64,000 nucleotides of DNA, taken from the NCBI GenBank assembly GCA_018654845.1, contig JABIKU010000011.1, positions 29,596-93,595 of the forward strand, given 5' to 3'. A model generated the notes under the pieces. It was given only the letters and a program-made list of their open reading frames with translations. It searched no databases and had not been told where the DNA came from. A program made the position numbers and the translations under genes. Positions 41,869 to 61,863 of the stretch are shown here, piece by piece (the stretch's first letter is position 1; each line of letters opens with the position of its first letter). Source of the DNA: Methanobacteriota archaeon. GTDB taxonomy: Archaea > Thermoplasmatota > Poseidoniia > Poseidoniales > Thalassarchaeaceae.

Positions 41869-41912
41869 CAGCAATCCTGCCTGAGAACGCCTCTTAATCA
41901 TTGAGAAAGAAA

Positions 41913-43153: not shown

Positions 43154-43208
43154 TGTCGGATTGCCGCTCCATCACATCATAAAGCATTGGTTGAATCGGT
43201 GGGCCAAT

Positions 43209-44042: not shown

Positions 44043-44046
44043 TTTG

Positions 44047-45219: not shown

Positions 45220-45254
45220 ATTTCGAAATAGGCTGCTCATCTGAAAATATTATT

Positions 45255-45602
45255 TCAGTACTTTTCAAGGCGGCCGCTATTACGAGTCCAAGCAGCAATC
45301 CCACCCTTTAGATTGTACAAGCGAGCAGCGTTGATTCCCGACGCAGTGAGTGTACGATAAGCAATTCTCGAGCGTTTTCCGCTCCTACAAAGCAAAAGCA
45401 CATCACCCTTCTTTGGGATACTCTTCAAAGCCGAACGAATTTTATCGTGGGATTTGACTAAATTAGTGCCTGGAATGGCTCCGGTCTTCTGAACTTCACC
45501 AAGGCTCCGTACATCAATAATGAACGGACTCCAACCTTCTGTAATCTTTTTCATCACTACATTCGATTTGATATCGCCGGCGCGTTTGAAGATGCTCCAC
45601 AT
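45255..45602 (-). CDS. Single-domain rhodanese (sulfurtransferase)
   Basis: IIDVRS..E, GAIPG, active loop LCRSGKRS, NLKGGIAAW; ATG at 45602 (TTG at 45629 alternative). Confidence 0.88.
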   Translation of the reverse strand: MWSIFKRAGDIKSNVVMKKITEGWSPFIIDVRSLGEVQKTGAIPGTNLVKSHDKIRSALKSIPKKGDVLLLCRSGKRSRIAYRTLTASGINAARLYNLKGGIAAWTRNSGRLEKY

Positions 45603-45649
45603 AAGGCGCCGGAAACGCGCATCATACAAAAAACAAATAGGCGTCCTTC

Positions 45650-45671
45650 AATATCACAATATTCAGATATT
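45650..45671. promoter_or_regulatory. Candidate ArsR-family operator in the divergent rhodanese / arsR-tusA promoter
   Basis: AATATC-AC-AATATT-CA-GATATT, a dyad with 9 of 11 base pairs symmetric about 45660/45661; immediately upstream of TAAAGATTATAG (BRE/TATA-like) and the arsR ATG at 45705. Confidence 0.6.
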
Positions 45672-45704
45672 AAAGATTATAGTCTGACACATGCCCCGGG
45701 GCCT

Positions 45705-46049
45705 ATGGCATTGAAGCAATCAGACTCAAGTAATCATATTCTTGATTCCGATTTTTTACATAATGTATCTAGCGTTATCAAAACTCTCGGACACCCAGAT
45801 CGAATCAGAATTGTAGAGAAGTTAAATGGCGAAGAATGTACTGTGTCCGAAATTCAAGAATCACTTGAAATTGGCCAATCAACCACCTCTCAACATCTTC
45901 GAAGAATGTACCGTGAAGGAATAGTAACGTCTCGTCGTGATGGAAATCGAGTGTTCTACTCTATCGCCAGTCCATTGATTGGAAAGATGCTAGCTTGCCT
46001 CGAAGAGGTCCAAGAAGAATTAATGAAAACTAAGGAGATGAAGATATGA
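45705..46049 (+). CDS. ArsR/SmtB-family transcriptional regulator
   Basis: KTLGHPDRIRI, TVSEI, QSTTSQHLRRM, GIVTSRRDGNRVFYSI; two Cys. Confidence 0.9.
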   Translation: MALKQSDSSNHILDSDFLHNVSSVIKTLGHPDRIRIVEKLNGEECTVSEIQESLEIGQSTTSQHLRRMYREGIVTSRRDGNRVFYSIASPLIGKMLACLEEVQEELMKTKEMKI

Positions 46050-46276
46050 CCGATTATAACGAAGAATTGGATTGCAGTGGACTGAATTGCCCACTACCTA
46101 TCCTCAAAACAAAAAAAGCGGTTGACAAATTAGAAAGTGGACAGATTCTCAAAATGGTATCCACAGATCCTGGATCATGTAATGATGTAGAAGCTTGGTC
46201 AAACCGAACAAAAAACCAATTATTAGAATCAGGAAAAGAAGGAGACAAGTATGTCTTCTATATTGAAAAGAAATGA
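46046..46276 (+). CDS. tusA: Sulfur carrier TusA
   Basis: LDCSGLNCPLPILKTKKA, STDPGS..DV. Confidence 0.93.
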   Translation: MTDYNEELDCSGLNCPLPILKTKKAVDKLESGQILKMVSTDPGSCNDVEAWSNRTKNQLLESGKEGDKYVFYIEKK

Positions 46277-46285
46277 GTTGAGAAA

Positions 46286-46801
46286 ATGAGTGAAAATGTA
46301 CCAAAGAAAATGGCGTTAATCGCCTCAAAAGGAACGCTAGATTGGGCCTACCCACCCTTTATCTTAGCATCGACCGCAGCCGCAATGGATATGGAAGTGA
46401 AAATTTTCTTCACTTTTTTTGGACTACCTCTGCTGAAGAAGAATCTGAAGACCGCTGTGTCTCCTCTTGGCAATCCCGCAATGCCGATGAAAATGCCATT
46501 TGGACCTAAGTTCTTCCAAAACATCAGTTGGCCTATACCTAATCTTGTAACAAGTAACGTTCCAGGCTTTGAATCAGTTGCTACTGGATTAATGAAGCAG
46601 ACCTTCAAGAAGAAGGGTGTTGCAACTATTGAAGAATTACGAGACATGTGCGTTGAGTTTGATGTCGAACTCATCGGCTGTCAGATGACCATGGATGTCT
46701 TCGGATTTGAAAAAGAAGATTTTATCGATGGAGTGAATATCGGTGGTGCGGCAACTTTCCTAGAATTTGCAGCTGATGCTGACATTACACTCTTTGTTTG
46801 A
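46286..46801 (+). CDS. dsrE2: DsrE2-type sulfurtransferase
   Basis: IASKGTLDWAYPPFILASTAAAM, FFTFFGL, IGCQMTMDVFG. Confidence 0.88.
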   Translation: MSENVPKKMALIASKGTLDWAYPPFILASTAAAMDMEVKIFFTFFGLPLLKKNLKTAVSPLGNPAMPMKMPFGPKFFQNISWPIPNLVTSNVPGFESVATGLMKQTFKKKGVATIEELRDMCVEFDVELIGCQMTMDVFGFEKEDFIDGVNIGGAATFLEFAADADITLFV

Positions 46802-46847
46802 ATTGTGATAATAATGGAACAAATATCAACTAAAGGAGAGAAGAAAA

Positions 46848-47231
46848 ATGAATGATGATGATGATGATGGAAGTGTTGCAATTTATATGACGTCAGGACC
46901 CGCTACACCTCAGCGATGTGCTACACCATTCTATATGGCAAGCATTGCTGCAGCAATGGATAATGAAGTAAGTATCGTTTTCCAAATCGATGGAGTTATG
47001 CTGATGAAAAAAGGGGTAGCAGACGAATTATACGCCACAGAAGGTGGCAAACTTGTTATCGATTTCATTCGAGATGCAAAAGAGGCTGATGTAGAGATGT
47101 ATGTCTGTTCGGCAGCATTACAACTCCACAATTTAACTGAAGACGATTTAATCGAAGAATGTGATGGAGTTGTAGGAGCAGCTTGGATGACTGATGTAGG
47201 CTTAGATGCTAATATGGTCCTAATGTATTGA
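46848..47231 (+). CDS. DsrE3-type sulfurtransferase
   Basis: TSGPATPQRCATPFYMASIAAAMD, FQIDG, VCSAAL, GVVGAA. Confidence 0.78.
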   Translation: MNDDDDDGSVAIYMTSGPATPQRCATPFYMASIAAAMDNEVSIVFQIDGVMLMKKGVADELYATEGGKLVIDFIRDAKEADVEMYVCSAALQLHNLTEDDLIEECDGVVGAAWMTDVGLDANMVLMY

Positions 47232-47241
47232 GGTGGAAAAA

Positions 47242-47700
47242 ATGGAAGTTAATAATTGTAGTTTACCAGATGATTTACTCTACCATGTAGATTACAATGT
47301 TTGGTTAAGACTCAAGGAAGATGGAATTGTAGAGATGGGTATGACAGATATCGCTCAAACAATGGCTGGTTCAATTATTCATTGTAGACCAAAGAAAGCG
47401 GGGAAGAAAATTAAGGCAGGAAAAAGTGTCGCTACCGTCGAATCAGGTAAATGGGTTGGCCCAGTAAAATCACCATTAACAGGAATCATCCTCGAAAGAA
47501 ATGATGTGGCTGAAGGAGATGCTACAATAATTAATCGCTCACCTTACAATGAGGGTTGGATTGTTAGAATACAACCGAATAATTTCGAGGGCGAATGTGG
47601 TTCACTCGTTGAAGGTGATGCTGCCACAGCAGGTTATGCTGAATACATGTCGGAGAAAGATTTGGCTGAATGTATTCATTGTGAAGGGTTTGAAGCTTGA
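47242..47700 (+). CDS. lbpA: Lipoate-binding protein LbpA (GcvH-like)
   Basis: CSLPDDLLY, GMTDIAQ, lipoyl site TVESGKWVGP (Lys at 47449-47451), PYNEGWI; extra Cys; sits in the sHdr cluster with no gcvP/T nearby. Confidence 0.82.
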   Translation: MEVNNCSLPDDLLYHVDYNVWLRLKEDGIVEMGMTDIAQTMAGSIIHCRPKKAGKKIKAGKSVATVESGKWVGPVKSPLTGIILERNDVAEGDATIINRSPYNEGWIVRIQPNNFEGECGSLVEGDAATAGYAEYMSEKDLAECIHCEGFEA

Positions 47701-47715
47701 GACCACAAAGGGCGA

Positions 47716-48003
47716 ATGATGAGGATGATGATTTTGCAAGTATTCACACATCCTGCTTGCTCGAGTTGCGGACCGGTCGTCGAATCAGCATGGGAAATAA
47801 CTGAAAATAATGAACATATAAAAATTCAAACTGTGAGACTAGAGGATAAACAAGGCCTCGCCACAGCACAGTCATTAGGAATAAGGACAATTCCGTCGAT
47901 TATTGTCAAGATTGATGATGATGAAGTACATCGACTTGTTGGTACACCTAAACCAGGTGAATTAGAAAGCGTTGTAATGACTGTTACAGAAAATATGAGG
48001 TGA
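47716..48003 (+). CDS. Thioredoxin-fold protein (CSSC)
   Basis: FTHPACSSCGP, GIRTIPSIIV, LVG.P. Confidence 0.8.
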   Translation: MMRMMILQVFTHPACSSCGPVVESAWEITENNEHIKIQTVRLEDKQGLATAQSLGIRTIPSIIVKIDDDEVHRLVGTPKPGELESVVMTVTENMR

Positions 48004-48008
48004 AATAA

Positions 48009-48731
48009 TTGCAGTCAATTTACAAGGATGCAAAATATACTGAAGTCCCATATGAAGAAAAATTAAGCTTATTTAATGAAGTAAAGGGCGACATGAGATA
48101 CTCGACTGAATTGTATGGATGCTATGAATGTGGGATCTGCGTTGCCGCTTGTCCATCTGCACGATTCTATGATTTCAGTCCGAGAGTTTTTGCCCAAACA
48201 ATGGCTAGAGAAGATGTTAATTCATTTTATGAATTACTGAATGATAATGTCTGGGATTGTTCACAATGTTTCTCCTGTACTTGTTGCCCAAGACAGAATA
48301 ACCCTGGTGGAATCATTACGATAATGAGGGAAGTCGCTGTAAACAATGGTTTGCAATCTGCAAAAGATGCTCTACGGGCGTACTCGAGAATAATCTACAA
48401 AGTTATGACTACGGGGACACAAGTCTCCCCTGATATGCTTCAACCAGATTTCTTTCCCGATTGGGGACCAGATGTTCGTGATGTTTCGCTCAACCTTGAT
48501 GTTTGGCGACGTGCAATTCCACCCGAAACATTACACACGGTAGAATTAGCTTGGGATGTTAGTGAAAAAACTCAGCTTGAACTTTACATGATTTGGAAAT
48601 TGACTGGCAATCTTGAAATGATTGAAAATGTTGATGAAGGCCTGTACATGATTCTTGAAGAAGTCATGGAAGAATTACTAGACGAACATGGCTATGATAT
48701 TGATGACTTTGAAAATATATTAGAAGATTAA
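48009..48731 (+). CDS. shdrC1: sHdrC1, 2x[4Fe-4S] subunit of the sulfur-oxidizing Hdr-like complex
   Basis: CYECGICVAACP and CSQCFSCTCCP; PDWGP; TTG start. Confidence 0.82.
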   Translation: MQSIYKDAKYTEVPYEEKLSLFNEVKGDMRYSTELYGCYECGICVAACPSARFYDFSPRVFAQTMAREDVNSFYELLNDNVWDCSQCFSCTCCPRQNNPGGIITIMREVAVNNGLQSAKDALRAYSRIIYKVMTTGTQVSPDMLQPDFFPDWGPDVRDVSLNLDVWRRAIPPETLHTVELAWDVSEKTQLELYMIWKLTGNLEMIENVDEGLYMILEEVMEELLDEHGYDIDDFENILED

Positions 48732-48747
48732 TTATGGAGATAAAAAT

Positions 48748-49962
48748 ATGCAGAGCAAAAATCCAATTCAACTAAATGTTGTCAATCAAAATTTGAAAGT
48801 CAAGAAGGCAGTAGATAGAGAATTTCAGTTACCAAAAAATCCTCCTACCAAAGATTACCGGAAAGAATTATTCGCGCTAGAAGCTGCGGGTGAAATCGAA
48901 ATCATCAGGGTTCCCGAGCCATTTGTTGAAGTCGATACAAAATATGGTAGAAAAAAGAAAATTCCAATTGAACACACTTGGCATCACAAATCATGTGGTC
49001 AATGTGGCCATATCCCAGGATACTCTACATCGATATATTGGCTCAATCGAGAATTTGGATTAGATTATTACGACCCACGAGATCAAACATCATGCACAGC
49101 ATGGAATTATTATGCATCTGCTGCATCAAATCCAGCAGCTCAGGCTGCAATTGCGTGTAGAAATTTCGCACAAGCTAAAATTGATGGCTATTTTCCTCTC
49201 ATCCATTGTGGGACAAGTTATGGGCACTACAAAGAGGTCAGGGCTCAATTATTACACTTCCCAGAATTACGCGAACAGGTTCGAAAAATTCTCGATAGGC
49301 TAGGGCTTCCGTTTGTTTTTCCTGAGGAAATAGTCCATTACTCTGAATGGGTACACGTAATGCGTCATCGAATTGCAGAAAAACAAACCCGAGACTTCTC
49401 CAAAGTTACCGCTACCGTTCACCCCGCTTGCCATTACCATAAATTAATTTCAGAAGATGCAATTTATGACCGAGACCTATACGATGGTCAACGAACAGCG
49501 ATAGTTACAGGAGTAGTCGAAGCATTGGGAGCGAAGGTCGCAGATTATTCAACATTCCACGATTGTTGTGGATTCGGATTTAGGCACATCCTTGTCAGTC
49601 GTGATTTCTCACGATCATTCGCAACAATTCGTAAAATTGAAAGAATGAAAATAGAAGCTGATCCAGATGTGACGATAACGCATGACACTGGTTGTGTCAC
49701 CACGCTCGACAAAAGTCAATTTTCAACTCAAGCCCATAATCGAAAGGTAGGCATTCCTGTAATTTCGGATGCTCAGTTCGCAGCTCTTGCGATGGGTGCT
49801 CATCCATACCTAGTTTGCCAATTACATTGGCATGGAGTGGACAATGTACCATTGCTCGAACTAATGGGCATTGACCATGAAAAAGCATGGAAAGAATTTG
49901 AAGAGGTCGCAGATAAATTACAACAAGACCCGGAAGCATTCCTTACTTGGGAGGATGTTTGA
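48748..49962 (+). CDS. shdrB1: sHdrB1, CCG-domain subunit
   Basis: WHHKSCGQCGHIPGY, QTSCTAWNYY, HCGTSYG, HPACHYHK, DCCGFGFRHI, HDTGCVTTLD. Confidence 0.88.
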   Translation: MQSKNPIQLNVVNQNLKVKKAVDREFQLPKNPPTKDYRKELFALEAAGEIEIIRVPEPFVEVDTKYGRKKKIPIEHTWHHKSCGQCGHIPGYSTSIYWLNREFGLDYYDPRDQTSCTAWNYYASAASNPAAQAAIACRNFAQAKIDGYFPLIHCGTSYGHYKEVRAQLLHFPELREQVRKILDRLGLPFVFPEEIVHYSEWVHVMRHRIAEKQTRDFSKVTATVHPACHYHKLISEDAIYDRDLYDGQRTAIVTGVVEALGAKVADYSTFHDCCGFGFRHILVSRDFSRSFATIRKIERMKIEADPDVTITHDTGCVTTLDKSQFSTQAHNRKVGIPVISDAQFAALAMGAHPYLVCQLHWHGVDNVPLLELMGIDHEKAWKEFEEVADKLQQDPEAFLTWEDV

Positions 49963-51024
49963 ATGAATGGAAAAAATATAATGGTAATTGGCGGAGGTCC
50001 CGCAGGTTTAGAATCAGCAGCAGGTATTTTGGATTTAGGTTATAACCTAATTTTAGTCGAAAAACGTGAATCACTAGGAGGAACTCCAATTTCAGCATCA
50101 TATGCTGCATTGACTCCAGATATGGAAGACACCGAAGTAGCAATGGCTAGAATGGTTAATTCAGTCGTTGGTAAAGAAAATGCCGACATCAGGCTTGGAA
50201 CATCGGTAGTAAGCGTTGAAGGCTCTGCCCCAGACTTCTTGGTAACTCTAGAATCGCCATCTGGTGTCGAAATCGTTAATGTAGGCTCAGTAATTGTAGC
50301 AACCGGATTCAAACACTTTGACCCTGGTCGAGAAACACAAAAATATGGATATTATGAATATGATGATGTCATAACTTTGGTTGATGCTGAAAAAATGCTG
50401 AAATCTGGAGAATTTGTTCGACCATCAACTGGAGAAAAACCAAAGAGAATTTGTTTCATCCAATGTGTTGGTAGTCGAGATAGGCAAATCGGCAATCAAT
50501 GGTGCTCAAAGGTTTGTTGCGGAATTGCAACAAAAGAAGCGATTGAAATCAAACATTTGGTTCCAGATTGCACTGTGATTGTTTTCTATATCGATATGCG
50601 TATGTATGGATTTTGGGAAGACGAATTATACTGGAAAGCCCAAGAAGAATACAAAGTTAATTACATCCGAGGAATTGTTAGTGAAGTTACAAAAAGAGGC
50701 GACACAGTCGTTGTCAAAGGTGAAGATACTACGATGGGAAGACCAATGGAAGTAGAAATGGACATGGTTATCCTATCGGTTGGAATGGAGCCATCCGATG
50801 GAACAATAGCTATGGCAGAGGCTTTCAATTTACCATTAGAATGTCATGGTTGGATTGAGACTATTGGAGGTGCATTGAATACTGTTCAAACTCCTGTTAA
50901 CGGTGTTTTCGTAGCGGGTGCTGCTGCCGGTCCTGCGGATCTTGAAGATTCAATCTCAATGGGCGGAGCTGCTGCGATGAAAGCCTGTGCATTCGTAAGA
51001 CGAATATCATTACCAACCGTTTGA
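49963..51024 (+). CDS. shdrA: sHdrA, short flavoprotein subunit
   Basis: IGGGPAG, IQCVGSRDRQIG..WCSKVCC, FYIDMR; 353 aa, lacking the ferredoxin and MvhD-binding regions of methanogen HdrA. Confidence 0.9.
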   Translation: MNGKNIMVIGGGPAGLESAAGILDLGYNLILVEKRESLGGTPISASYAALTPDMEDTEVAMARMVNSVVGKENADIRLGTSVVSVEGSAPDFLVTLESPSGVEIVNVGSVIVATGFKHFDPGRETQKYGYYEYDDVITLVDAEKMLKSGEFVRPSTGEKPKRICFIQCVGSRDRQIGNQWCSKVCCGIATKEAIEIKHLVPDCTVIVFYIDMRMYGFWEDELYWKAQEEYKVNYIRGIVSEVTKRGDTVVVKGEDTTMGRPMEVEMDMVILSVGMEPSDGTIAMAEAFNLPLECHGWIETIGGALNTVQTPVNGVFVAGAAAGPADLEDSISMGGAAAMKACAFVRRISLPTV

Positions 51025-51037
51025 AGGAGTGATACCA

Positions 51038-51814
51038 ATGTTGTACGATTCATTAACGATTCAAGAAGTGGTTGATTCTGAATCTGCAGCTGAGTTTTTG
51101 AAAGAAGCTACTAAATTAGCAAGCTCAAAAGAATTGGAAGATATTGCTAAAAAATTGTCAACAAAACAACAGTATTTCAAAAAAACTCTTGGGCAAAATA
51201 ATCTAAACACAATCGATGAAAGAGAACTAGAACACCTACTTAGACGTGTGTTTTCTATCAGTCGAAAATCTCCAAAAATTATCCGCATGATCGGTTTTGA
51301 GAATCTGTGTAATTCGATTAATGAATTGTTGTACGGAGAGTATGGAGAATTAGAATCGGGAAAAAGAATTACTATCTTTACAAAATCAGTTTCAAATGTA
51401 TTAGATGAGCGTCGTGCTATTAATCTAGCGAGTGAATTGCTACATTATTCTGATCCAGAGAAGTATGCACTTTGGACGAATTGGATTTGGGATCCAATAA
51501 CCGGCTCCGGGGCTCTTCAAATGGTTCTCCAAGAAGAAATGTGGATTCAAGGAGATACGATATCAGATAGATATGATAGCATTTCTTCTGCATTAAAAAT
51601 AATTGAACACGCGGGTTATTCAAAATCAATTTCAGGAAACGCATCAGGAATGTTGGGGTGTAGCCTATACCTAGCTTGCGTACATGCGGTTTACATGTAC
51701 ACGGTTTTCCGTATGAAAATGTCAAATGAATTCAATCGGATTCTACCCGAACTTCCAGAAATGGTAGAACGTTTACTGGGAGTTCGAAAAATGGAGGTTG
51801 ACCAATATGTCTGA
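51038..51814 (+). CDS. shdrH: sHdrH-like conserved protein
   Basis: Position after shdrA; ASELLHY..PEKYALWTNWIWDP; YMYTVFRMKMSNEFNRILP; GGAGTGA RBS before ATG 51038. Confidence 0.7.
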   Translation: MLYDSLTIQEVVDSESAAEFLKEATKLASSKELEDIAKKLSTKQQYFKKTLGQNNLNTIDERELEHLLRRVFSISRKSPKIIRMIGFENLCNSINELLYGEYGELESGKRITIFTKSVSNVLDERRAINLASELLHYSDPEKYALWTNWIWDPITGSGALQMVLQEEMWIQGDTISDRYDSISSALKIIEHAGYSKSISGNASGMLGCSLYLACVHAVYMYTVFRMKMSNEFNRILPELPEMVERLLGVRKMEVDQYV

Positions 51815-53081: not shown

Positions 53082-53097
53082 AGGAGAAGGGAATAAC

Positions 53098-54765: not shown

Positions 54766-54784
54766 TGATTTTTTATCGTATCTA

Positions 54785-56842
54785 GTGGTGAGAATAATGT
54801 TTAGCGAACAAGAAAGAATGGTATTTATTGGATTGGTTGTGATTTGTGGAGCACTAGCTTGGCCTGGATTTTACAATATGTTCAAAATCATTCGAAAGGG
54901 AGGGGAAGTCAATCGTTTTGATAATATTATCAAACGCTTCCTCACTGCTACTATCGATGTACTATTACAAAAACCGATTTTCAAAACTAGACCTTTTGTA
55001 AGTATTTTGCACGCATTCATTTTCTTTGGGTTTTCATTTTATTTACTTGTAAATGTTAGTGATTTACTCGAGGCATTTGTCGAAGGATGGACAACTATCG
55101 ACCGTGGTCCAATATTTGGAACTTTCAATTTACTTGCTGACCTATTCAGTGTATTAGTTTTGGTCGGTATGATTTCGATGCTCTATAGAAGATTTGTAGT
55201 GAAGCCAAAAGCATTCGAGTTCAATGACAATGTATTACTCCATCCGAAAGTTGCGAAAGGTTCAATCAAAAAAGATTCTCTTTTCGTTGGAATATTCATA
55301 CTCTTGCACGTCGGCTCAAGATGGGTTGGAACTGCAATTAGAATGGCAGAGGAGGGGCATACGAATGCTTGGCTACCAACCGCTAGCCTACTCGTCCCAT
55401 TATTCTCAGATATGAGCCCTGAATCGCTTGAACAGGCTTTCCACATTACTTGGTGGATAGCGATGGGTTTGATTGTGATGTTCATCCCATATTTCCCGCG
55501 CTCAAAACACATTCACTTGATGATCGCTCCCATAAATCTAGCACTCGGCAGAAATACGCCAGTAGGTGCTCTAGACCCTGTCATAGACTATTCATCTCCC
55601 GGAGCGAGTGGAATCCTCGAACTCCCCTGGCCTCAATTGCTCGATCCTTACGCTTGCATAATGTGCACTCGCTGTCATGAAGTGTGTCCCGCACATGAGA
55701 GTGGAACCTCACTGAGTCCATCCGCGCTCGAAATCAATAAACGATATTTGATGAATGAAAGTGGAAGTTCACTCGCTGCAGGCGAAGATATTCAATTACT
55801 AGATTCAGCGATTAGTAGCGATGCGGTCTGGTCTTGTACAACCTGCAATGCCTGTGTTTCAATTTGCCCGGTAGGCAATGAGCCGATGCAAGATATCATT
55901 CAGATGCGACGGAGCATGGTGTTCGACTCAAATATGCCCGACGAACTAGCTGATACTCTTCGTTCCCTTGATGAACAAGGAAACTCATTTGGTGAATCAA
56001 ACCGAAAACGTAGTCGTTGGACAAAACCACTTAATATCGATATCAAAGATGCGAGTAAAGAAGCAGTAGACATCCTTTGGTTTGTTGGTGATTTCGCATC
56101 ATTCAATCAATCTTGTACCGATACCACCCGCAAGGTTGCAGAAGTATTAACTGCGGCTGGTGTTGATTTTGGTATCATTAAGAAAGGTGAGAAAAGTGCT
56201 GGAAATGATGTCCGTAGAGTCGGTGAAGAAGGGTTATTTGAATCGTTGGCAGAACAAAATATCGAGAAATTAGCTGGCTGTGAATTCAACAGAATTATGA
56301 CTACAGATCCGCATACATTCAATGCATTGAAGAATGAATATCCAGCATTGGGTGGAGAATATGAAGTAGTTCATTACTCTACTCTTTTACTCGAAATGAT
56401 GGAGTCAGGAATTATTAATCTCGATGAAACACTTTCTGGTAATGCAACATATCACGATCCGTGTTATCTCGGCCGTTATAATGGAATTTATGAGGCTCCT
56501 CGAGGAGTAATAGAGAGATGTGGATTATCGATTGTGGAAATGCCCCGTAATCGAGATAATTCATTATGTTGTGGCGCAGGTGGCGGACAAATTTGGATGA
56601 ATGATCACGATGATATGACCCAGCGCCCTTCTGAAATGCGTATCGAAGAGGCACTATCCGTTGGTGTTTCTCGTTTCCTAGTCGCTTGTCCTAAAGATAT
56701 GACTATGTATTCTGATGCAGTCAAGACAAGCGGCCACGAAGGCGAAATAATCGTCGAGGACATTATTGACCTAGTTTACTCGGCTATGAATATGCAAGTT
56801 GAGAAAATGCTGCCATCCAACGTGGATGGGGTTCTAACTTGA
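54785..56842 (+). CDS. Membrane-bound Fe-S oxidoreductase (FadF/Emo-like; TM + 2x[4Fe-4S] + 2 CCG), probable ETF:quinone link
   Basis: N-terminal TMs with His (LHAFIFFGF, FHIT, KHIH); CIMCTRCHEVCP, CTTCNACVSICP; HDPCYLGRYN, CCGAGGG, ACPKD. Start GTG 54785 or ATG 54797. Confidence 0.8.
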   Translation: MVRIMFSEQERMVFIGLVVICGALAWPGFYNMFKIIRKGGEVNRFDNIIKRFLTATIDVLLQKPIFKTRPFVSILHAFIFFGFSFYLLVNVSDLLEAFVEGWTTIDRGPIFGTFNLLADLFSVLVLVGMISMLYRRFVVKPKAFEFNDNVLLHPKVAKGSIKKDSLFVGIFILLHVGSRWVGTAIRMAEEGHTNAWLPTASLLVPLFSDMSPESLEQAFHITWWIAMGLIVMFIPYFPRSKHIHLMIAPINLALGRNTPVGALDPVIDYSSPGASGILELPWPQLLDPYACIMCTRCHEVCPAHESGTSLSPSALEINKRYLMNESGSSLAAGEDIQLLDSAISSDAVWSCTTCNACVSICPVGNEPMQDIIQMRRSMVFDSNMPDELADTLRSLDEQGNSFGESNRKRSRWTKPLNIDIKDASKEAVDILWFVGDFASFNQSCTDTTRKVAEVLTAAGVDFGIIKKGEKSAGNDVRRVGEEGLFESLAEQNIEKLAGCEFNRIMTTDPHTFNALKNEYPALGGEYEVVHYSTLLLEMMESGIINLDETLSGNATYHDPCYLGRYNGIYEAPRGVIERCGLSIVEMPRNRDNSLCCGAGGGQIWMNDHDDMTQRPSEMRIEEALSVGVSRFLVACPKDMTMYSDAVKTSGHEGEIIVEDIIDLVYSAMNMQVEKMLPSNVDGVLT

Positions 56843-56864
56843 ATGAGTTGAGGATGCCGATATA

Positions 56865-58292
56865 ATGGTCAATTACGGTTTCGTCATCGACAATCGCAAG
56901 TGTATTGGATGCCATGCATGTACTGTCGCATGTAAGTCTGAACACGATGTCCCTATCGGAGTAAACCGCACTCACGTAAAGTACATCGAAACTGGAACTT
57001 ATCCAGATGTCACTCGTGAATTTAGTGTCCATCGCTGTAATCATTGCGAAGATTCACCATGTACTACAATTTGTCCAACTAGTGCACTATTCACAAGAGA
57101 TGATGGCATCGTTGACTTCGATGATGACCGTTGTATCGGATGCAAATCTTGTATGCAAGCCTGTCCTTACGATGCTCTCTATATCGACCCTAACAAAGGC
57201 ACGGCGGCTAAGTGCAATTATTGTGCTCATCGCATCGAACATTCATACGAGCCAGCTTGTGTCATTGTCTGTCCGACCGAAGCGATTGTTTCTGGAGATC
57301 TTGATGATGAAAATTCTTCAATCTCAGGATATCTGCGTGATCATGTAACAACGGTTCGTAAACCTGAATCGGGTGCAAATCCCAATGTATACTATGTTGA
57401 GACAAGTGAAGAAATGTTAGACCCTAAAGCAACTGAACGCTCCGGCGAATACCTGTGGACCGACCAGGCAGCAGGAGTTGGCCATTATGCAAAATATGCA
57501 GATCAACGTCTCGGTGCAGCAGATACAAATTCAATGATTGTACAATTAGCTCTCGAGAAAAAGGCACGAGCTGCGGCTGGAAGAGACCGAGCAATCATTC
57601 GAGATGTCATGGAGCGCTTGGACGAGCAAGCAGGGAAGCCGAAACGCTCCTATGACCAACCAGCGAAAGGCATCCTTTGGGACTGGGACGTTGCAGGATA
57701 TCTCGTCACCAAATCTACAGCTGCTGGTTTGTACATTCTGATGATGCTCGCGATGATTACTGGGAAAATCAATTTCGGCAGCGAAATCCTCATCGCGTTG
57801 GTAGCTAGCATAGGATTACTAGGATTAACCGGATTACTCCTCATTAATGATTTAGACAAACCAATGCGGTTCGTCTATGTTCTCTTGCGACCTAATTTTT
57901 CTTCCTGGCTCGTAAAGGGAGGATACACACTCGGTGCATTCGCCAACATCATGGTCGTGCATTTAGGGATATTTTTCCTCGATATGCCTGAAATTTGGCA
58001 TATGTGGTTAGCAATTCTTGGAATCCCTCTAGCTTGGTTGACTGGAAATTACACTGGTTGGTTATTCAAGCAAGCAAAGGGACGTGAAAAATGGGCGAAC
58101 CGTACCAATCAAGAAATCATTATCACAGGTTCAATCGAAATGTTGGTTTTCGGTGGAGCTGCCGCGCTTCTATTGCTCTTCTCAGGAATTCTGCAATATC
58201 TTGCTCTATCCGGAGCCGTACTAATTTTCACCTTCGGATACAAGCACGTGCTACACGATTTGCGTAGTGCTCAAGTGGAGACACTACATTGA
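56865..58292 (+). CDS. Fusion of DmsB/PsrB-type 4x[4Fe-4S] subunit and NrfD/PsrC-type membrane anchor
   Basis: CIGCHACTVAC, CNHCEDSPCTTICP, CIGCKSCMQACP, KCNYC...PACVIVCP; then WDWDVAGYL, DLDKPMRF, SSWLVKG. Confidence 0.87.
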   Translation: MVNYGFVIDNRKCIGCHACTVACKSEHDVPIGVNRTHVKYIETGTYPDVTREFSVHRCNHCEDSPCTTICPTSALFTRDDGIVDFDDDRCIGCKSCMQACPYDALYIDPNKGTAAKCNYCAHRIEHSYEPACVIVCPTEAIVSGDLDDENSSISGYLRDHVTTVRKPESGANPNVYYVETSEEMLDPKATERSGEYLWTDQAAGVGHYAKYADQRLGAADTNSMIVQLALEKKARAAAGRDRAIIRDVMERLDEQAGKPKRSYDQPAKGILWDWDVAGYLVTKSTAAGLYILMMLAMITGKINFGSEILIALVASIGLLGLTGLLLINDLDKPMRFVYVLLRPNFSSWLVKGGYTLGAFANIMVVHLGIFFLDMPEIWHMWLAILGIPLAWLTGNYTGWLFKQAKGREKWANRTNQEIIITGSIEMLVFGGAAALLLLFSGILQYLALSGAVLIFTFGYKHVLHDLRSAQVETLH

Positions 58293-58302
58293 GGTGAATG
58301 AT

Positions 58303-61032
58303 ATGGCAAAAACAATTATCGAAGGTATCGCACAAAAATTGCGAATCATACCAAACCTCGACCGAAATGTCACTGAAGGAAATTTAGAACCTCTCCGAAA
58401 ATTCCCCTCATCTAATGAATGGCACAATCATATCGAATTAGATGCAAATTCTTGGCCGGTACGAATTGAGAGGAAATATTCCTTAGTGCCAACAACTTGT
58501 TTCAATTGCGAATCCGCATGTGGCCTGCTCGCATATGTAGACAAAGGAACCAGGCAAGTATCCAAATTCGAAGGAAACCCACACCACCCTGGTAGTCGCG
58601 GGAGAAATTGCGCTAAAGGACCGGCTACAATTAATCAAATTCAGGATACTGAGCGTATTTTGTACCCAATGCGAAGAGTCGGAGGGCGTGGTGAAGGTGG
58701 TTGGGAGAGAATATCTTGGGATGAGGCGTTGGATGAAATTTCAACAAAAATCCGCGCATCACTAAAGACTGGCGCAGTCGACAAAGTCGTTTATCACGTA
58801 GGTAGACCAGGGCATGAAGGATACATGAATCGCGTCCTCAAAGCCTGGGGTGTAGATGGCCATAATTCACACACAAATATCTGTTCAGCTGGGGCGCGAA
58901 CTGGATATGCGCTTTGGCATAAACACGATAGACCAAGTCCCGATCATACAAATGCAAAGGTCATACTTCTAACATCTTCTCACCTTGAAACCGGCCATTA
59001 TTTCAATCCTCATGCTCAACGAATTCTAGAAGGAATGATGGATGGAGCAAAACTCATCGTCATCGACCCTAGACTCTCGAATACGGCGGCGATGGCAGAT
59101 TATTGGCTACCAACCTGGCCGGGAAGTGAGCCAGCATTATTCCTCGCGTGGGCAAAAATGATTATTGAGCGCGGCCTATTTGACCGCGAATTCATGGAAA
59201 CTCAGGTTAATTGGGATGCTTGGATGAAAGCTGTCCACCCCGATGAGCCTTGCAATTTCGATCGATATATCGAATTACTAACTGAAGAATACGCTGAATA
59301 TACACCGGAATTTGCTGCAGAAGAATGCAAGATCCCGGTCGAACAAGTTATCGAAGCTGGAGAGGTGGTTGCAAGTGCAGGAACACAATTGTGTACCCAC
59401 GTTTGGCGCAGTGCTTCTATCGGAAACTTAGGGGGATGGCAAGTAAGCCGTACACTTCATTTCCTCAATGTCCTGACAGGATCGGTAGGAACAGAAGGGG
59501 GAACCTCACCTAATTCATGGTCTAAATTCAAACCAGATCTCTTCGATAATCCACCTGACCCAGATGGCTGGAACGAACTCCATTTCCCACCTGAATACAC
59601 TATGTCTCACTTCGAAATGAGTCACATTCTACCTCATCTAATCAAGGATGGAAGAGGCTCAATGGATGTTTACTTCACACGTGTATTCAATCCGGTTTGG
59701 ACATTTCCTGATGGATTTTCATGGATGGAAATGTTGCAGAATAAGGAATCGGTTGGCTGCCATGTCGCAATGACTCCAACCTGGAATGAAACTGCATTCT
59801 TTGCTGATTATGTTCTACCTATGGGGCATTCAGCCGAGCGACATGACGTCAATTCTTACGCGACGTCCTCGGGTAAGTGGGTAGCATTCCGCCAACCTGT
59901 TCTGCGTGAATATGCACGCAGAGAGGGACGGGAAGTCGAATTTACTCACGAAGTAAATCCAGGGGAAGTTTGGGAAGAAGATGAATTCTGGAACGAGTTA
60001 TCGTGGCGAATCGATGATGGCACGATGGGGATACGTGAGCACTTCATGAGCCCATACCGTGAAGGAGAAAAAATCACTATCGATGAATATTATCAGTATC
60101 TTTTCGAGCGTGTCCCGGGTCTTCCTGAAGCCGCAGAAAAAGAAGGTACTGACGCCCTAGGATACATGAGGAAACATGGAGCATTCCTCATTGAAGAATC
60201 GACATACAAAAAGTATGAGGAAGAAGGATGGCCTACCCCTTCAGGTAAGCAAGAATTCTATTCAGAAACAATGATTGAATTCGGCTATCCTGAACACTCA
60301 ATACCTCATTACCGACAAAAATCTCATGTTCACCCAGAAAATCTTGTAGGCGAAAACGAATATTGTCTACTGCCTAACTTCCGACTTCCACAACATATCC
60401 ACTCCCGCTCAGCCAATGCAAAATGGTTAGTCGAAATCGCTCATAGAAATCCAATTTGGATTCATCCGAAAGATGCAAGAAAACTGGGCGTTGCCGAAGG
60501 GGATTTACTAAAAATCGAAACTGAAATCGGTTGGTTCGTCGACAAGGTATGGGTCACTGAAGGTATCAAACCTGGCGTAGTTGGTTGCAGCCACCACATA
60601 GGCCGGTGGCGGCGAAATCAAGATGCTGGTAATCGCTTCCTAACAAATACTGTCAACATCGAAGATAACGGTGACGGCAAGATGCGAATGAGGACTGTCA
60701 GCGGCATCGAACCGTGGAAGTCGGATGACCCCGATACCAACAGAATTTGGTGGAGGGACGGCGGGGTTCACCAGAACATAACTCACGCCGTACAACCAGA
60801 TCCAATCTCTGGAGCCCATTGCTGGCTCCAGAAGGTCAAATTATCCCTCCCGGGAGAAGGCGAAGAATACGGAGACATCGAGGTAGATCAACAAAAGTCG
60901 TTTGATTATTATAAACGGTGGAATAACTGGGCAAAGGATAGAGAAACTCATCCGAGAGGTGAGCGACGTCCACTATGGATGAAAAGACCATTACCGCCAA
61001 AGAAAGAACACTGGTATATCAAAGAGGAATAA
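58303..61032 (+). CDS. DMSO-reductase-family molybdopterin oxidoreductase catalytic subunit, no Tat signal (Soe/Sre/Psr-like)
   Basis: TCFNCESACG...GRNCAKG (FS0), ISWDEAL, HTNICSA, IDPRLS, C-terminal HSRSANAKWL..IWIHPKDA; GAGGTGA RBS, ATG 58303. Confidence 0.88.
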   Translation: MAKTIIEGIAQKLRIIPNLDRNVTEGNLEPLRKFPSSNEWHNHIELDANSWPVRIERKYSLVPTTCFNCESACGLLAYVDKGTRQVSKFEGNPHHPGSRGRNCAKGPATINQIQDTERILYPMRRVGGRGEGGWERISWDEALDEISTKIRASLKTGAVDKVVYHVGRPGHEGYMNRVLKAWGVDGHNSHTNICSAGARTGYALWHKHDRPSPDHTNAKVILLTSSHLETGHYFNPHAQRILEGMMDGAKLIVIDPRLSNTAAMADYWLPTWPGSEPALFLAWAKMIIERGLFDREFMETQVNWDAWMKAVHPDEPCNFDRYIELLTEEYAEYTPEFAAEECKIPVEQVIEAGEVVASAGTQLCTHVWRSASIGNLGGWQVSRTLHFLNVLTGSVGTEGGTSPNSWSKFKPDLFDNPPDPDGWNELHFPPEYTMSHFEMSHILPHLIKDGRGSMDVYFTRVFNPVWTFPDGFSWMEMLQNKESVGCHVAMTPTWNETAFFADYVLPMGHSAERHDVNSYATSSGKWVAFRQPVLREYARREGREVEFTHEVNPGEVWEEDEFWNELSWRIDDGTMGIREHFMSPYREGEKITIDEYYQYLFERVPGLPEAAEKEGTDALGYMRKHGAFLIEESTYKKYEEEGWPTPSGKQEFYSETMIEFGYPEHSIPHYRQKSHVHPENLVGENEYCLLPNFRLPQHIHSRSANAKWLVEIAHRNPIWIHPKDARKLGVAEGDLLKIETEIGWFVDKVWVTEGIKPGVVGCSHHIGRWRRNQDAGNRFLTNTVNIEDNGDGKMRMRTVSGIEPWKSDDPDTNRIWWRDGGVHQNITHAVQPDPISGAHCWLQKVKLSLPGEGEEYGDIEVDQQKSFDYYKRWNNWAKDRETHPRGERRPLWMKRPLPPKKEHWYIKEE

Positions 61033-61035
61033 ATT

Positions 61036-61863
61036 ATGGAATTTGAATTGATAATCGCGATCGTTTTGATCTTGATGACTGCATTTATGTTTGCACCGCT
61101 CGGACTAGGTGGTGGAGTTCTCTATGTGCCAATATTCCTATTCTTACTCGATTGGGAAATCCACCTTGCACTCGTCTCGTCCCTCCTACTCGTTTGGATG
61201 GTTTCACTGGGAAGTAAAGCAGCCCATAGCAAAGGAGGTTATGCAGTAAAGGAAGTGGGTGACAAAGGAACCGTCGCAGCACTGATTGGAGTGGTTGTTG
61301 GGACGATATTAGCTGCTTTCATTATCGGTGAATTGGGCGATGTTCCAATTAAAATTCTCGCATCGATTCTTCTAGTATGGGTATTATACTCAACAATTAA
61401 AAAATTGACTAAAGAATTGAACGGCAACGGCAATGGTGATACAGAAACTCCAGTCGTTGAAGGAGAAATTTTGAACGCCTATCGGGCGGGTTGCTTTGGA
61501 GGAGGCGCAGCTTCAGGATTTTTAGGAATCGGTGGTGGTGCAATTTTCGTTACAATTCACAGCTCAATTCTTGGATTAAAGCAACACCAAGCAGCTGGAA
61601 CTTCATTCCTCATCGAGAGTTGGATAGTACCTACAGGAATCATAACTCACCTCATAATCGATGGTACAGGACCGGAAATTTTGCAGATATTTGGGATCTA
61701 CATCTTACCTATTTGCGGAATAGTTGCAGCAACATCTTGGCTCGGTGCTCAAGTTGCAATCAAAATGCTTCCACAAAGAGTGTTGACCTATCCATTCATC
61801 ATAGCAGTAGCTGCGAGTTTGATTAATTATCTGATGAATATCAAAGAGATGCTAGGTTACTAA
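61036..61863 (+). CDS. TauE/SafE-family sulfite/sulfur-compound exporter
   Basis: Two repeated halves: GLGGGVLYVP and GFLGIGGGAIFV...AAGTS; about 8 TM. Confidence 0.8.
   Translation: MEFELIIAIVLILMTAFMFAPLGLGGGVLYVPIFLFLLDWEIHLALVSSLLLVWMVSLGSKAAHSKGGYAVKEVGDKGTVAALIGVVVGTILAAFIIGELGDVPIKILASILLVWVLYSTIKKLTKELNGNGNGDTETPVVEGEILNAYRAGCFGGGAASGFLGIGGGAIFVTIHSSILGLKQHQAAGTSFLIESWIVPTGIITHLIIDGTGPEILQIFGIYILPICGIVAATSWLGAQVAIKMLPQRVLTYPFIIAVAASLINYLMNIKEMLGY

Follow-up and report, generated by a model that had tools for sequence, protein, structure and literature searches.

A type II sHdr-LbpA cassette set in a native molybdoenzyme operon of a Poseidoniales archaeon, with a putative role in sulfane-sulfur oxidation

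Described sHdr systems and NrfD-type molybdoenzymes

The sHdr-LbpA pathway converts sulfane sulfur to sulfite. Its type II version is defined by shdrC1B1AHB3 plus etfAB in a single syntenic cluster, with EtfAB and the membrane protein EMO proposed as electron carriers to menaquinone, and direct biochemistry on this type is scant (PMC11094781). The literature reports no SoxT-type importer for type II genomes, so none would be expected at the locus described here. Type II sHdr has previously been recorded in Thermoplasmatota (Tanabe 2024), and a Tat-less Psr-like enzyme is known from MGII, the homologues of MGII and Marine Group A having been interpreted as polysulfide reductases or as possibly acting in sulfide oxidation (Wright 2014). 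Among the complexes treated in a review of NrfD proteins, SoeABC is the single NrfD-type complex described with catalytic subunits on the N-side (PMC8076601). With both components on record, the locus is less novel than a sequence-only reading of the present DNA had rated it; it is the placement and rarity of sHdr in the lineage that are informative, though the enzyme system is known.

Gene content and arrangement of the locus

The window, that is, the whole stretch of 64,000 nucleotides analysed, contains 17 co-oriented ORFs (45705-61863, + strand) and one divergent rhodanese gene (Table 1), with no gap among the 17 exceeding 46 nt and overlaps in several cases. The sequence-only reading had counted sixteen co-oriented genes, a miscount since it listed 17 gene names itself. 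Its gene assignments were reproduced with Pfam or NCBIfam, and only the sHdrH position gave no family match in these collections; an orthologue of sHdrH with 41-58% identity is nevertheless found at the corresponding position in bacterial and archaeal loci. The order arsR-tusA-dsrE2-dsrE3-lbpA-trx-shdrC1B1AH-B3-etfBA-emo is seen identically in dozens of bacterial loci, a recurrence that is therefore far beyond chance. Domain content, motifs and synteny match the published type II sHdr-LbpA layout, and the type II assignment made earlier stands, shdrC1B1AHB3 and etfAB forming one syntenic cluster (PMC11094781).

Table 1. Features of the locus (window coordinates)
Feature	Position	Strand	Evidence
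Single-domain rhodanese, 124 aa, active-site loop CRSGKR	45255..45629	-	Pfam Rhodanese, E 1.5e-10; Cys81 loop
Imperfect palindrome between rhd and arsR, candidate ArsR-type operator	45646..45675	.	15-nt arms, 80% complementary
ArsR/SmtB-type regulator, two Cys (C45, C98)	45705..46049	+	HTH_5, E 3e-14
TusA sulfur carrier, CPLP motif (Cys15)	46046..46276	+	Pfam TusA, 86 bits
DsrE2 sulfur carrier	46286..46801	+	NCBIfam NF047629 equivalog, 224 bits vs 210 cut-off
sHdr cassette, dsrE3 to emo, 10,057 bp	46802..56858	+	blastn vs G149 ends at 46801, restarts at 56859
DsrE3-type sulfur transferase, 127 aa	46848..47231	+	Pfam DsrE, 65 bits
LbpA, lipoate-binding GcvH paralogue, lipoyl lysine in VESGKW	47233..47700	+	GCV_H, 116 bits
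Small thioredoxin-like protein, CSSC motif	47716..48003	+	weak thioredoxin matches
sHdrC1, two [4Fe-4S] motifs	48009..48731	+	Fer4_8; HdrC models 72-76 bits; Cys pattern
sHdrB1, proposed catalytic CCG-domain subunit	48748..49962	+	CCG domain; HdrB model 116 bits
sHdrA, short Fe/S flavoprotein	49963..51024	+	full-length match to 6TJR
sHdrH, conserved 261-aa protein	51029..51814	+	position in cluster
sHdrB3, HdrC2/HdrB2-like fusion	51798..53081	+	Fer4_9 + CCG; two [4Fe-4S] motifs, one CCG domain
EtfB	53098-53835	+	Pfam ETF / ETF_alpha
EtfA	53836-54765	+	Pfam ETF / ETF_alpha
EMO-like membrane oxidoreductase, 685 aa	54785..56842	+	Pfam Fer4 + CCG
Four-cluster FeS protein fused to short NrfD-like membrane anchor	56865..58292	+	Fer4_11 + NrfD
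Mo-bisPGD catalytic subunit, Psr/Phs/SoeA-like, 909 aa from ATG at 58303	58303..61032	+	Pfam domains
TauE/SafE-family anion exporter (predicted)	61036..61863	+	Pfam TauE, 80 bits; ~7 TM segments

The sHdrA protein aligns over its full length with that of the sulfur oxidiser Hyphomicrobium denitrificans (6TJR, E 3.6e-85), whereas methanogen HdrA aligns with residues 98-342 only; the kinship with methanogen Hdr that had been named as grounds for rejecting the assignment was thus not borne out. LbpA scores 71 against the GcvH equivalog (cut-off 115.85), which the true GcvH of the genome, on contig C20, passes with 146, and the lysine of its VESGKW motif is aligned with the lipoyl lysine of GcvH. 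The locus had been called apparently complete, which is correct for the genome as a whole and not for the locus alone, since the LbpA-specific lipoylation genes sLpl(AB)-LipS1-LipS2-LipT sit on a separate contig (C15). DsrE3 is 70-89% identical to its positional counterpart in Marinisomatota and archaeal loci, and the thioredoxin-like gene is kept at the equivalent position in Marinisomatota. The sHdrB3 fusion has 424 aa in public gene calls, and EMO has about four TM helices near its N-terminus in addition to a CCG domain and two [4Fe-4S] motifs (hydropathy, Cys pattern). A second, housekeeping etfBA pair is located on contig C26 of the host genome.

At the upstream end, the ArsR protein reaches about 54 bits with the BigR and TsoR models, under their cut-offs, and is a candidate for a sulfane-sulfur-responsive repressor of the sHdrR/SoxR/BigR kind. 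It is 87% identical to its copy in a same-genus relative (G149), upstream of which the rhd/arsR palindrome recurs nearly unchanged; other loci of the same persulfide dioxygenase (PDO) type carry AT-rich repeats resembling it. The rhodanese is missing from G149, no blastn alignment being obtained over 45309-45531.

At the downstream end, the FeS-NrfD fusion contains 16 Cys along with some 4-5 TM segments, is 97% identical to the G149 copy and matches positions 7-172 of the 313 of the NrfD profile, the anchor being of about half length. The Mo subunit has PsrA (2VPW) as its closest solved structure and is DmsA/PhsA/PsrA-like in its top family and structure matches, those to curated models (DmsA/PhsA) lying under the cut-offs. 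A twin-arginine (Tat) motif was looked for in this subunit and none is present, and the FeS domain of the anchor fusion begins at residue 3; on these features the active site is predicted to face the cytoplasm.

A composite locus on an archaeal chromosome

The host, confirmed as an MGII (Poseidoniales) archaeon, has a genome that is 86% complete and carries two COX1 genes. Given the 72-85% identity between the sHdr proteins and those of Marinisomatota and the slightly lower GC at 46-52 kb (0.40 vs 0.42-0.46), the 45-62 kb block might be taken for a mis-assembly or binning chimera in which Marinisomatota DNA was joined to an archaeal contig, an objection already raised with the sequence-only reading. 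However, three independent assemblies (ENA ERZ4231634, JGI 3300005431 and JGI 3300037808) are colinear and 99.9% identical along a stretch that leads from the archaeal CPSase/Trm56/TraB genes across the cassette and reaches into the Mo operon, covering the upstream and the emo/Mo junctions, and the downstream end is backed by relatives. Moreover, many Poseidoniales genomes show synteny with the contig on both flanks, four further archaeal genomes share an equivalent arrangement, and the archaeal copies branch as a clade of their own. The chimera is refuted by this evidence.

The block, treated earlier as one unit, is nonetheless composite: a native frame, consisting of a FeS-NrfD and Mo core that is often followed by TauE and, in some relatives, preceded by arsR-tusA-dsrE2, has received a 10-kb cassette. 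In G149 a 1.2-kb rhodanese-persulfide-dioxygenase (Rhd-PDO) gene stands in place of the 10,057 bp, and the breakpoints in the blastn comparison are exact. The FeS-NrfD and Mo genes are native to the order, the Mo enzyme gene being present in 136 of 401 sampled genomes, whereas sHdrB1 was found in only three. Rhd-PDO occurs in 28 of the 401, never together with sHdr, and lies directly upstream of the FeS-NrfD/Mo genes where coordinates or fetched loci permit checking; no such gene was found in the host genome. Its best solved matches are the CstB-like 3TP9 and 3R2U, ETHE1 (4CHL) and BpPRF (5VE3). In relatives devoid of sHdr, the FeS-NrfD/Mo pair is often accompanied by TauE, which follows the Mo gene in many of them, and partly by arsR-tusA-dsrE2. 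The Mo enzyme is unaccompanied by either PDO or sHdr in about 100 genomes of the order, and its substrate therefore need not derive from these modules.

A search of genome contigs retrieved 585 sHdrB1 relatives, the exact protein being present in 322 index blocks. The archaeal sHdr sequences form one clade (100/100) within a bacterial clade containing Marinisomatota (100/99), and the cassette gene order is common to Marinisomatota and many other bacteria, with subunits 60-85% identical. Judged from its sequence, the cassette (dsrE3-lbpA-trx-shdrC1B1AH-B3-etfBA-emo) is bacterial in origin, with its nearest relatives in Marinisomatota. The sHdr-bearing Marinisomatota also encode the Mo enzyme (67-72% identity), which adjoins sHdr in one Chlorobiales MAG and one Acidobacteriota MAG. 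The names of several sHdr-bearing relatives (ETNP, Arabian Sea, Saanich Inlet) point to an origin in oxygen-deficient waters.

Proposed function and comparison with known systems

It is rather probable that this composite locus of a Poseidoniales chromosome encodes a true type II sHdr-LbpA system acting in sulfane-sulfur oxidation. In the proposed pathway, the rhodanese, TusA, DsrE2 and DsrE3 would relay sulfur from persulfide to LbpA, in its lipoylated form, and to the sHdr complex, where it would be converted to sulfite independently of O2. Electrons would leave by way of sHdrB3, EtfAB and EMO, reach quinone in the membrane and end at the haem-copper oxidases of the cell. The cytoplasm-facing Mo enzyme would then oxidise sulfite to sulfate, probably in the manner of SoeABC, TauE would export anions, and the two-Cys ArsR repressor would allow sulfane sulfur to turn the operon on.

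The same machinery could instead detoxify or balance reactive sulfane sulfur, arising for example from cysteine or peptide catabolism, with delivery of electrons to quinone being incidental. This is conceivable, if doubtful: elsewhere the slot holds a rhodanese-PDO fusion, the classic persulfide detoxification enzyme, the regulator appears to be of the persulfide-sensing ArsR kind, a search that was not Sox-specific found no SQR or Sox-type entry route in the genome, and MGII are described as heterotrophs degrading peptides and lipids (PMC6336850). Yet 17 genes, including a dedicated Etf/EMO quinone route, and a dedicated lipoylation pathway are costly for detoxification, a task that a 1.2-kb PDO gene performs in relatives, and the sHdr pathway of H. 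denitrificans is reported to provide supplementary electrons (PMC12423496). Also unlikely is that the Mo enzyme acts upstream, as a cytoplasmic Psr/Phs-like enzyme making or consuming polysulfide or thiosulfate to feed PDO or sHdr (such as a quinone-linked conversion of sulfide into polysulfide) instead of oxidising the sulfite they release. Its top named matches (PhsA, DmsA, PsrA), the interpretation of the MGII homologues by Wright et al. 2014 and the lack of an SQR candidate in the 86% complete genome, which calls for another entry enzyme, point that way. Against it stand the cytoplasmic active site, an orientation that only SoeABC shares in the NrfD review (PMC8076601), and the position of the gene between a sulfite producer (PDO or sHdr) and a gene of the TauE/SafE sulfite-exporter family; in the many Mo-only genomes, moreover, a sulfite dehydrogenase for organosulfur catabolism fits better than a dead-end maker of polysulfide.

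EtfAB/EMO-type modules are also active in beta-oxidation, and EMO occurs in syntrophs. The complex could accordingly run reductively, taking electrons by Etf from fatty-acid or amino-acid oxidation to a disulfide or polysulfide as a low-oxygen electron sink, and the oxygen-deficient origin suggested by the names of several relatives would suit such a role. It is highly improbable, however, as the cassette is orthologous (60-85%, identical order) to gene clusters that are assigned to type II sHdr of sulfur oxidation, contains LbpA plus the set of sulfur transferases specific to the oxidative route, and resides in a genome with a separate housekeeping etfBA pair and haem-copper oxidases. Should sulfane-sulfur oxidation by a type II sHdr system be the true role, a heterotroph would draw additional respiratory electrons from reduced sulfur, an O2-independent first step replacing the dioxygenase of its relatives.

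Among described systems, the bacterial type II sHdr-LbpA clusters of Sulfobacillus, Chloroflexota, Actinomycetota and Marinisomatota (Cao 2018, Justice 2014, Tanabe 2024) are identical in genes and order, sharing lbpA, tusA, dsrE-type transferases, the fused B3, etfBA and the membrane EMO at 60-85% identity. The present cassette differs in belonging to a planktonic MGII archaeon, in lying inside a native archaeal Mo-enzyme operon in replacement of a persulfide dioxygenase gene, and in the unlinked lipoylation genes of its genome. Type I systems (shdrC1B1AHC2B2; H. denitrificans, Aquifex aeolicus) are alike in the C1-B1-A-H core, LbpA, TusA/DsrE, an ArsR-type repressor, TauE in the model and an sHdrA matched over its full length (6TJR), whereas here C2 and B2 are fused as B3 and electrons would exit through EtfAB/EMO. 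Methanogen HdrABC and the Flx-Hdr of sulfate reducers have homologous HdrA, HdrB and HdrC folds with CCG clusters; in contrast, the HdrA of the window, of 353 aa, has neither the N-terminal nor the ferredoxin domain, every NCBIfam model of methanogen Hdr scores far under its cut-off (HdrA2, 256 bits vs 1100), and an Mvh or Flx partner is lacking. The Rhd-PDO fusions of the CstB, BpPRF and ETHE1 family occupy the same operon slot and would have sulfite from persulfide as a common product, but the sHdr step would be O2-independent and hand its electrons to the respiratory chain. Finally, the sulfite:quinone oxidoreductase SoeABC of A. vinosum and A. aeolicus and the Psr-like complexes without Tat signal known from green sulfur bacteria, Marine Group A and fosmids of MGII (Wright 2014) resemble the Mo module in a Mo-bisPGD subunit with an N-terminal [4Fe-4S] and no Tat motif, a four-cluster FeS protein, an NrfD-type anchor, the psrBC-A order and a BC fusion; from these, the window enzyme differs in an anchor of about half an NrfD and in having DmsA/PhsA as its best curated models, below their cut-offs.

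Gene content and type II identity of the locus

The (+) strand carries, at 45705-61863, 17 co-oriented open reading frames, several of them overlapping and none separated from the next by more than 46 nt (see the table). The sequence-only reading had announced sixteen genes, evidently a miscount since its own list names 17, and each of its gene assignments was reproduced by Pfam and NCBIfam. The small divergent rhodanese has no counterpart in G149, a relative of the same genus.

Features of the sulfur locus in the window, and the rhodanese-persulfide dioxygenase fusions (Rhd-PDO) of G149 and G133, two genomes of the same genus (L087 and L089, their loci)
Feature	Position	Strand and length	Evidence and remarks
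Rhodanese	45255-45629	(-), divergent, 124 aa	Pfam; active loop CRSGKR
Palindrome	45646-45675		Upstream of arsR; conserved upstream of arsR in PDO-type relative
ArsR	First of the 17 co-oriented ORFs	(+)	Pfam/NCBIfam; two Cys
TusA		(+)	Pfam/NCBIfam; CPLP motif
DsrE2		(+)	NCBIfam equivalog NF047629, 224 bits vs cut-off 210
DsrE3-type protein		(+)	Pfam/NCBIfam
LbpA, GcvH-like		(+)	Pfam/NCBIfam; lipoyl lysine in VESGKW
Thioredoxin-like protein		(+)	Pfam/NCBIfam; CSSC motif
HdrC-like (C1)		(+)	Pfam/NCBIfam; di-cluster motif
HdrB-like (B1)		(+)	CCG domain; CC(G) motif
Short HdrA-like protein		(+), 353 aa	Pfam/NCBIfam
261-aa protein		(+)	No family assigned
B3, Fer4+CCG fusion		(+), 427 aa	Di-cluster and CC(G) motifs
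EtfB and EtfA		(+)	Pfam/NCBIfam
EMO-like Fer4+CCG protein		(+), 685 aa	About four N-terminal TM segments predicted; CC(G) motif
Fer4_11+NrfD fusion	56865-58292	(+)	Pfam
Mo-bisPGD enzyme	Likely ATG 58303	(+), 909 aa	Pfam/NCBIfam; same start as public gene calls
TauE	61036-61863	(+)	Pfam
Rhd-PDO, G149	L087:16590-17741		Slot equivalent to window 46802-56858
Rhd-PDO, G133	L089:4847-5998		Slot equivalent to window 46802-56858

Type II sHdr loci are defined by shdrC1, B1, A, H and B3 together with etfAB in one syntenic cluster, with emo usually next (PMC11094781). All seven genes lie contiguously at 48009-54765 with the expected domains, which places the type II sHdr/LbpA assignment, first made from the sequence, within the published definition. 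The sHdrB3 protein has a Fer4_9 domain at residues 60-116 and a CCG domain at 309-394, with two CxxCxxCxxxC motifs plus CC pairs, as for a C2-like/B2-like fusion with a single CCG site. The 685-aa product encoded after etfBA, a candidate EMO-like membrane oxidoreductase, has two [4Fe-4S] motifs besides its CCG domain, and the type II loci of bacteria encode it as well. Two further HdrD/EMO-like paralogues with Fer4 and CCG domains, which share 24-29% identity with EMO and B3, are encoded on other contigs of the genome (C2:52889-54727 and C16:27813-28871). LbpA fails the GcvH equivalog (71 against a cut-off of 115.85), which a GcvH-like paralogue on contig C20 passes (146); the VESGKW lysine of LbpA aligns with the lipoyl lysine of GcvH. 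The sulfur transferases that accompany sHdr, namely TusA, the DsrE2 equivalog, DsrE3 and a rhodanese, are all present.

Two other explanations of the block had been envisaged, a kinship of its proteins with the Hdr of methanogens or sulfate reducers and a chimeric join with a bacterial genome. Methanogen HdrA does match sHdrA in the PDB comparison, partially and over the core only; the top match is the sHdrA of H. denitrificans (6TJR, E 3.6e-85), which covers residues 4-348. The HdrA of methanogen-type HdrABC is long, at about 650 aa, and includes ferredoxin domains, whereas the window's protein has only 353 residues, and the HdrA models of NCBIfam score 223-256 bits on it against cut-offs of 1100-1400, all methanogen Hdr models remaining well under cut-off on the locus proteins. 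The short sHdrA and these curated scores rule out a methanogen-type HdrABC. Because sHdrA aligns end to end with 6TJR, the Hdr models fail and LbpA is not GcvH, the proteins are placed apart from the Hdr of methanogens and sulfate reducers.

Regarding the chimera, the window corresponds to C9:29596-93595 of a 1.55-Mb genome assembled into 37 contigs, with a completeness of 86% and a contamination of 0.15%. Its flanks carry archaeal genes, such as Trm56, and are syntenic on both sides with many Poseidoniales genomes, in agreement with the MGII-like host proposed earlier; the host family might be MGIIb (Thalassarchaeaceae). When the junctions were checked against independent public assemblies, three of them (ENA ERZ4231634, JGI 3300005431 and JGI 3300037808) were colinear with window positions 38751-58000 at 99.9% identity, a stretch that spans CPSase, Trm56, TraB, the entire cassette and the start of the Mo operon. 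These assemblies, together with the syntenic flanks, exclude a chimeric join. The public assembly index lists the exact sHdrB1 protein in 322 of its blocks.

Slot exchange and origin of the cassette

The block at 45-62 kb, read earlier as one sHdr locus, has the gene content of such a locus but is composite, with the cassette lying inside a native Mo operon frame. At the DNA level, the window is 89% identical to G149 up to position 45308 and 74% over arsR-tusA-dsrE2 (45532-46801); nothing aligns at 46802-56858, and identity is again 86-89% from 56859 on. Since the alignment stops at 46801 and resumes at 56859, the 10,057-bp dsrE3-to-emo module sits exactly in the slot of the 1.2-kb Rhd-PDO gene of G149. 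The FeS-NrfD fusion and the Mo subunit that follow are 97% and 95% identical to those of G149, against 59-68% and 82% for other sHdr-bearing archaea, which argues that the frame is native. At the 3' end of the operon, TauE is 72% identical to the G149 copy, its neighbours scoring higher (Mo subunit 95%, thiolase 97%), and the sequence divergence suggests a local recombination or replacement boundary there.

The Poseidoniales synteny survey that had been proposed, here of 401 sampled species genomes of the order, found the Mo enzyme frame to be widespread but sHdr to be rare as a lineage trait. The Mo subunit is encoded in 136 genomes, distributed over 19 of 26 genera, and sHdrB1 in three: the window's own genome, G217 (same family, another genus) and G356, recorded as 'Candidatus Poseidoniaceae archaeon ETNP7_MAG_77' and belonging to another family (Poseidoniaceae, of Poseidoniales, Thermoplasmatota, in the NCBI taxonomy). 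None of the 16 other genomes of the same genus had sHdrB1.

Between traB and a thiolase gene, the chromosome has a conserved site whose cargo varies, found in four versions: FeS-NrfD and Mo alone; the same with tauE; arsR-tusA-dsrE2 followed by a 383-aa gene, FeS-NrfD, Mo and tauE; and the sHdr version. The 383-aa gene encodes a rhodanese fused to a metallo-beta-lactamase domain, whose best solved relatives are the CstB-like 3TP9 and 3R2U, human ETHE1 (4CHL) and BpPRF (5VE3); on account of these domains and structures it is a candidate persulfide dioxygenase (PDO). Such Rhd-PDO genes are present in 28 of the 401 genomes, directly upstream of FeS-NrfD/Mo wherever coordinates or fetched loci permit checking. 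Rhd-PDO and sHdr were never found together among the 401 genomes, and the window's own genome (86% complete) has no Rhd-PDO copy. The same-genus fusions of G149 and G133 have Gln in place of the second His of the HxHxDH motif (THLQADY), the first His and the HTPGH and GD motifs being retained; in G133, a dodecin gene (L089:4486-4818) replaces arsR-tusA-dsrE2 upstream of Rhd-PDO. The exchange of PDO and sHdr in one slot supports the idea that both enzymes would feed a single downstream Mo enzyme without a Tat signal.

The gene order arsR-tusA-dsrE2-dsrE3-lbpA-trx-C1B1AH-B3-etfBA-emo is also found in Marinisomatota, whose core sHdr subunits are 72-85% identical to the window's, and in many other bacterial phyla. 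In a tree of concatenated C1, B1, A and B3, the five archaeal sequences (three Poseidoniales genomes plus G437 and NP112, from another order of the same class) form one clade (100/100), nested in a 14-member bacterial clade (100/99) that contains all six Marinisomatota; the inner archaeal node is weak (82/44). Archaeal identity between families (85%) is no lower than within them (83-84%). Of the phyla with reported type II sHdr, 12 are bacterial and one is archaeal (PMC11094781). The parsimonious reading would be a single bacterium-to-archaeon transfer into Poseidoniia. A sister order of Poseidoniales, to which G437 and NP112 belong and which might be MGIII, has the full island (L114/L115 of G437; L002/L003 of NP112 and ARS43), arranged tusA-dsrE2-arsR-dsrE3-lbpA-sHdr-etf-emo-FeS-NrfD-Mo-LipS2-LipS1-sLplAB-LipT. 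The TusA gene of NP112 (L002) encodes a protein of 150 aa whose TusA domain spans residues 79-146.

In the phylum-wide genome sample, at least two lineages have sHdrB1-like genes, the class Poseidoniia and the family f22. The f22 cluster (L116 of G716, L118 of G708, L119 of G672) encodes B1 and A proteins 53-56% and 41% identical to the window's and also holds two lbpA-like genes, dsrE3, an sLplAB-like gene, tusA and dsrE2; near it, in these three loci, no B3, etf or emo matches were found. By its gene content it looks like a separate acquisition, and it may be the Thermoplasmatota set meant in the literature. Its difference from the Poseidoniia cassette points to at least two gains of Hdr-like sulfur systems in Thermoplasmatota.

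The Mo enzyme and the proposed pathway

No twin-arginine motif or hydrophobic signal was found at the N-terminus of the Mo subunit. In the membrane-anchor fusion, the four-cluster FeS domain begins as early as residue 3, ahead of the anchor, so that the catalytic dimer has to lie on the cytoplasmic side. Among solved structures PsrA of T. thermophilus comes nearest, and the best curated models, DmsA/PhsA, score under cut-off, NCBIfam and Pfam containing no SoeA model. The missing Tat signal of the Mo subunit speaks against a periplasmic PsrABC/PhsABC complex. Many archaeal genomes have the Mo enzyme directly after PDO or sHdr, both sulfite-forming, and then TauE; two bacterial MAGs, one of Chlorobiales and one of Acidobacteriota, have it beside type II sHdr, and a homologue of the Mo subunit (67-72% identity) is present in all five sHdr-bearing Marinisomatota checked (L004, L006, L007, L008 and L011). 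The neighbouring genes, the bacterial adjacency and this co-presence link the enzyme to sulfite. We infer about an even chance that it is a SoeABC-like sulfite:quinone oxidoreductase; against this stand an anchor of only about half an NrfD and about 100 genomes that have the Mo enzyme and neither PDO nor sHdr. In every bacterial match, the alignment to the window's Mo protein is interrupted near window residue 641, inside a single open frame. Since Marinisomatota carry both sHdr and the Mo homologue, two separate sulfur modules are common to these bacteria and the co-occurring planktonic MGII, documenting gene sharing between Marinisomatota and Poseidoniia.

In the proposed pathway, rhodanese, TusA, DsrE2 and DsrE3 would relay sulfane sulfur to LbpA and sHdr, with sulfite as product. 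From B3, electrons would travel by way of EtfAB and EMO to quinone and finally to the two haem-copper oxidases. The Mo enzyme would then oxidise sulfite and TauE would export the anion, the operon being probably repressed by the two-Cys ArsR at the candidate palindrome. None of the nine Pyr_redox_2 matches of the genome (86% complete) is SQR-like; by position or sequence they resemble LpdA, TrxR, sHdrA, SdhA, geranylgeranyl-reductase-like or phytoene-desaturase-like proteins, or are sub-cut-off. Candidate sulfur sources are thiosulfate, via rhodanese, and cysteine or organosulfur catabolism.

The locus had been described as apparently complete, which holds for the genome but not for the locus itself, since the four lipoylation genes sLpl(AB), LipS1, LipS2 and LipT are on another contig (C15:91-4935). 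Their best NCBIfam models are LipS1, LipS2 and LplAB, slightly under cut-offs, and they are 71-82% identical to the cassette-linked set of G217; in G217 and G437 all four are physically linked to the sHdr island. The cluster, in the order LipT-sLpl(AB)-LipS1-LipS2, lies at the very start of C15 and adjoins an rpl15e-like gene.

Significance and comparison with known systems

MGII rank with the most abundant archaea of the plankton, and models treat them as (photo)heterotrophs; neither sulfur oxidation nor the Mo enzyme is mentioned in the two principal comparative studies. The names of several sHdr-bearing relatives (ETNP, Arabian Sea, Saanich Inlet) point to regions deficient in oxygen. The encompassing interpretation, tentative and on balance doubtful, is that a widespread MGII population would be a sulfur lithoheterotroph and not a plain heterotroph. 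In its cytoplasm, sulfane sulfur from thiosulfate or organosulfur compounds would be oxidised all the way to sulfate, through a cassette captured from bacteria near Marinisomatota and a native SoeABC-like enzyme, the alternation of no module, PDO and sHdr in the slot acting as an oxygen-niche switch in Poseidoniia. If true, respiratory sulfur oxidation would give some MGII populations a part in the cryptic sulfur cycling of low-oxygen waters. The swap at a fixed slot also constitutes a natural experiment, and it yields a testable assignment, sulfite:quinone oxidoreductase, for an enzyme of about one third of Poseidoniales species.

Whether the system had been reported before was raised at the outset. 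A phylum-level survey entry exists, but sHdr in Poseidoniales was not found in the searchable literature; on Hdr, sulfur oxidation, SoeA or PDO in MGII it yielded nothing specific apart from Wright et al. 2014, on Psr-like genes, and no paper joining PSRLC3 with SoeABC was found. As far as this literature shows, sHdr in Poseidoniales and its rarity there (3/401), its probable single origin near Marinisomatota and the PDO/sHdr alternation ahead of the native Mo enzyme are new. Already known are the type II architecture, the presence in Thermoplasmatota as a survey entry (PMC11094781) and the Tat-less Psr-like enzyme of MGII (Wright et al. 2014).

In that last study, MGII fosmids were found to carry Tat-less PsrA and PsrBC fusions, closest to the genes of Marine Group A (Marinisomatota), and these were compared with green-sulfur-bacterial complexes; the window's Mo subunit shares with these homologues the lack of a Tat motif. 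In a review of NrfD proteins, SoeABC is the sole NrfD-type complex described with catalytic subunits on the N-side (PMC8076601), and the Mo enzyme of the window resembles it in its cytoplasmic Mo-bisPGD and FeS subunits. The SoeC anchor, however, has 8 helices (PMC8076601), whereas the NrfD-like anchor of the window is shorter, matching profile positions 7-172 of 313, and is predicted to have about 4-5 TM segments. Possibly it represents one four-helix bundle in place of the usual anchor of 8 helices. As for the cassette, DsrE3B was described as the sole transferase in type II Thermoplasmatota (Tanabe et al. 2024, PMC11094781), whereas the present locus encodes TusA and DsrE2 as well.
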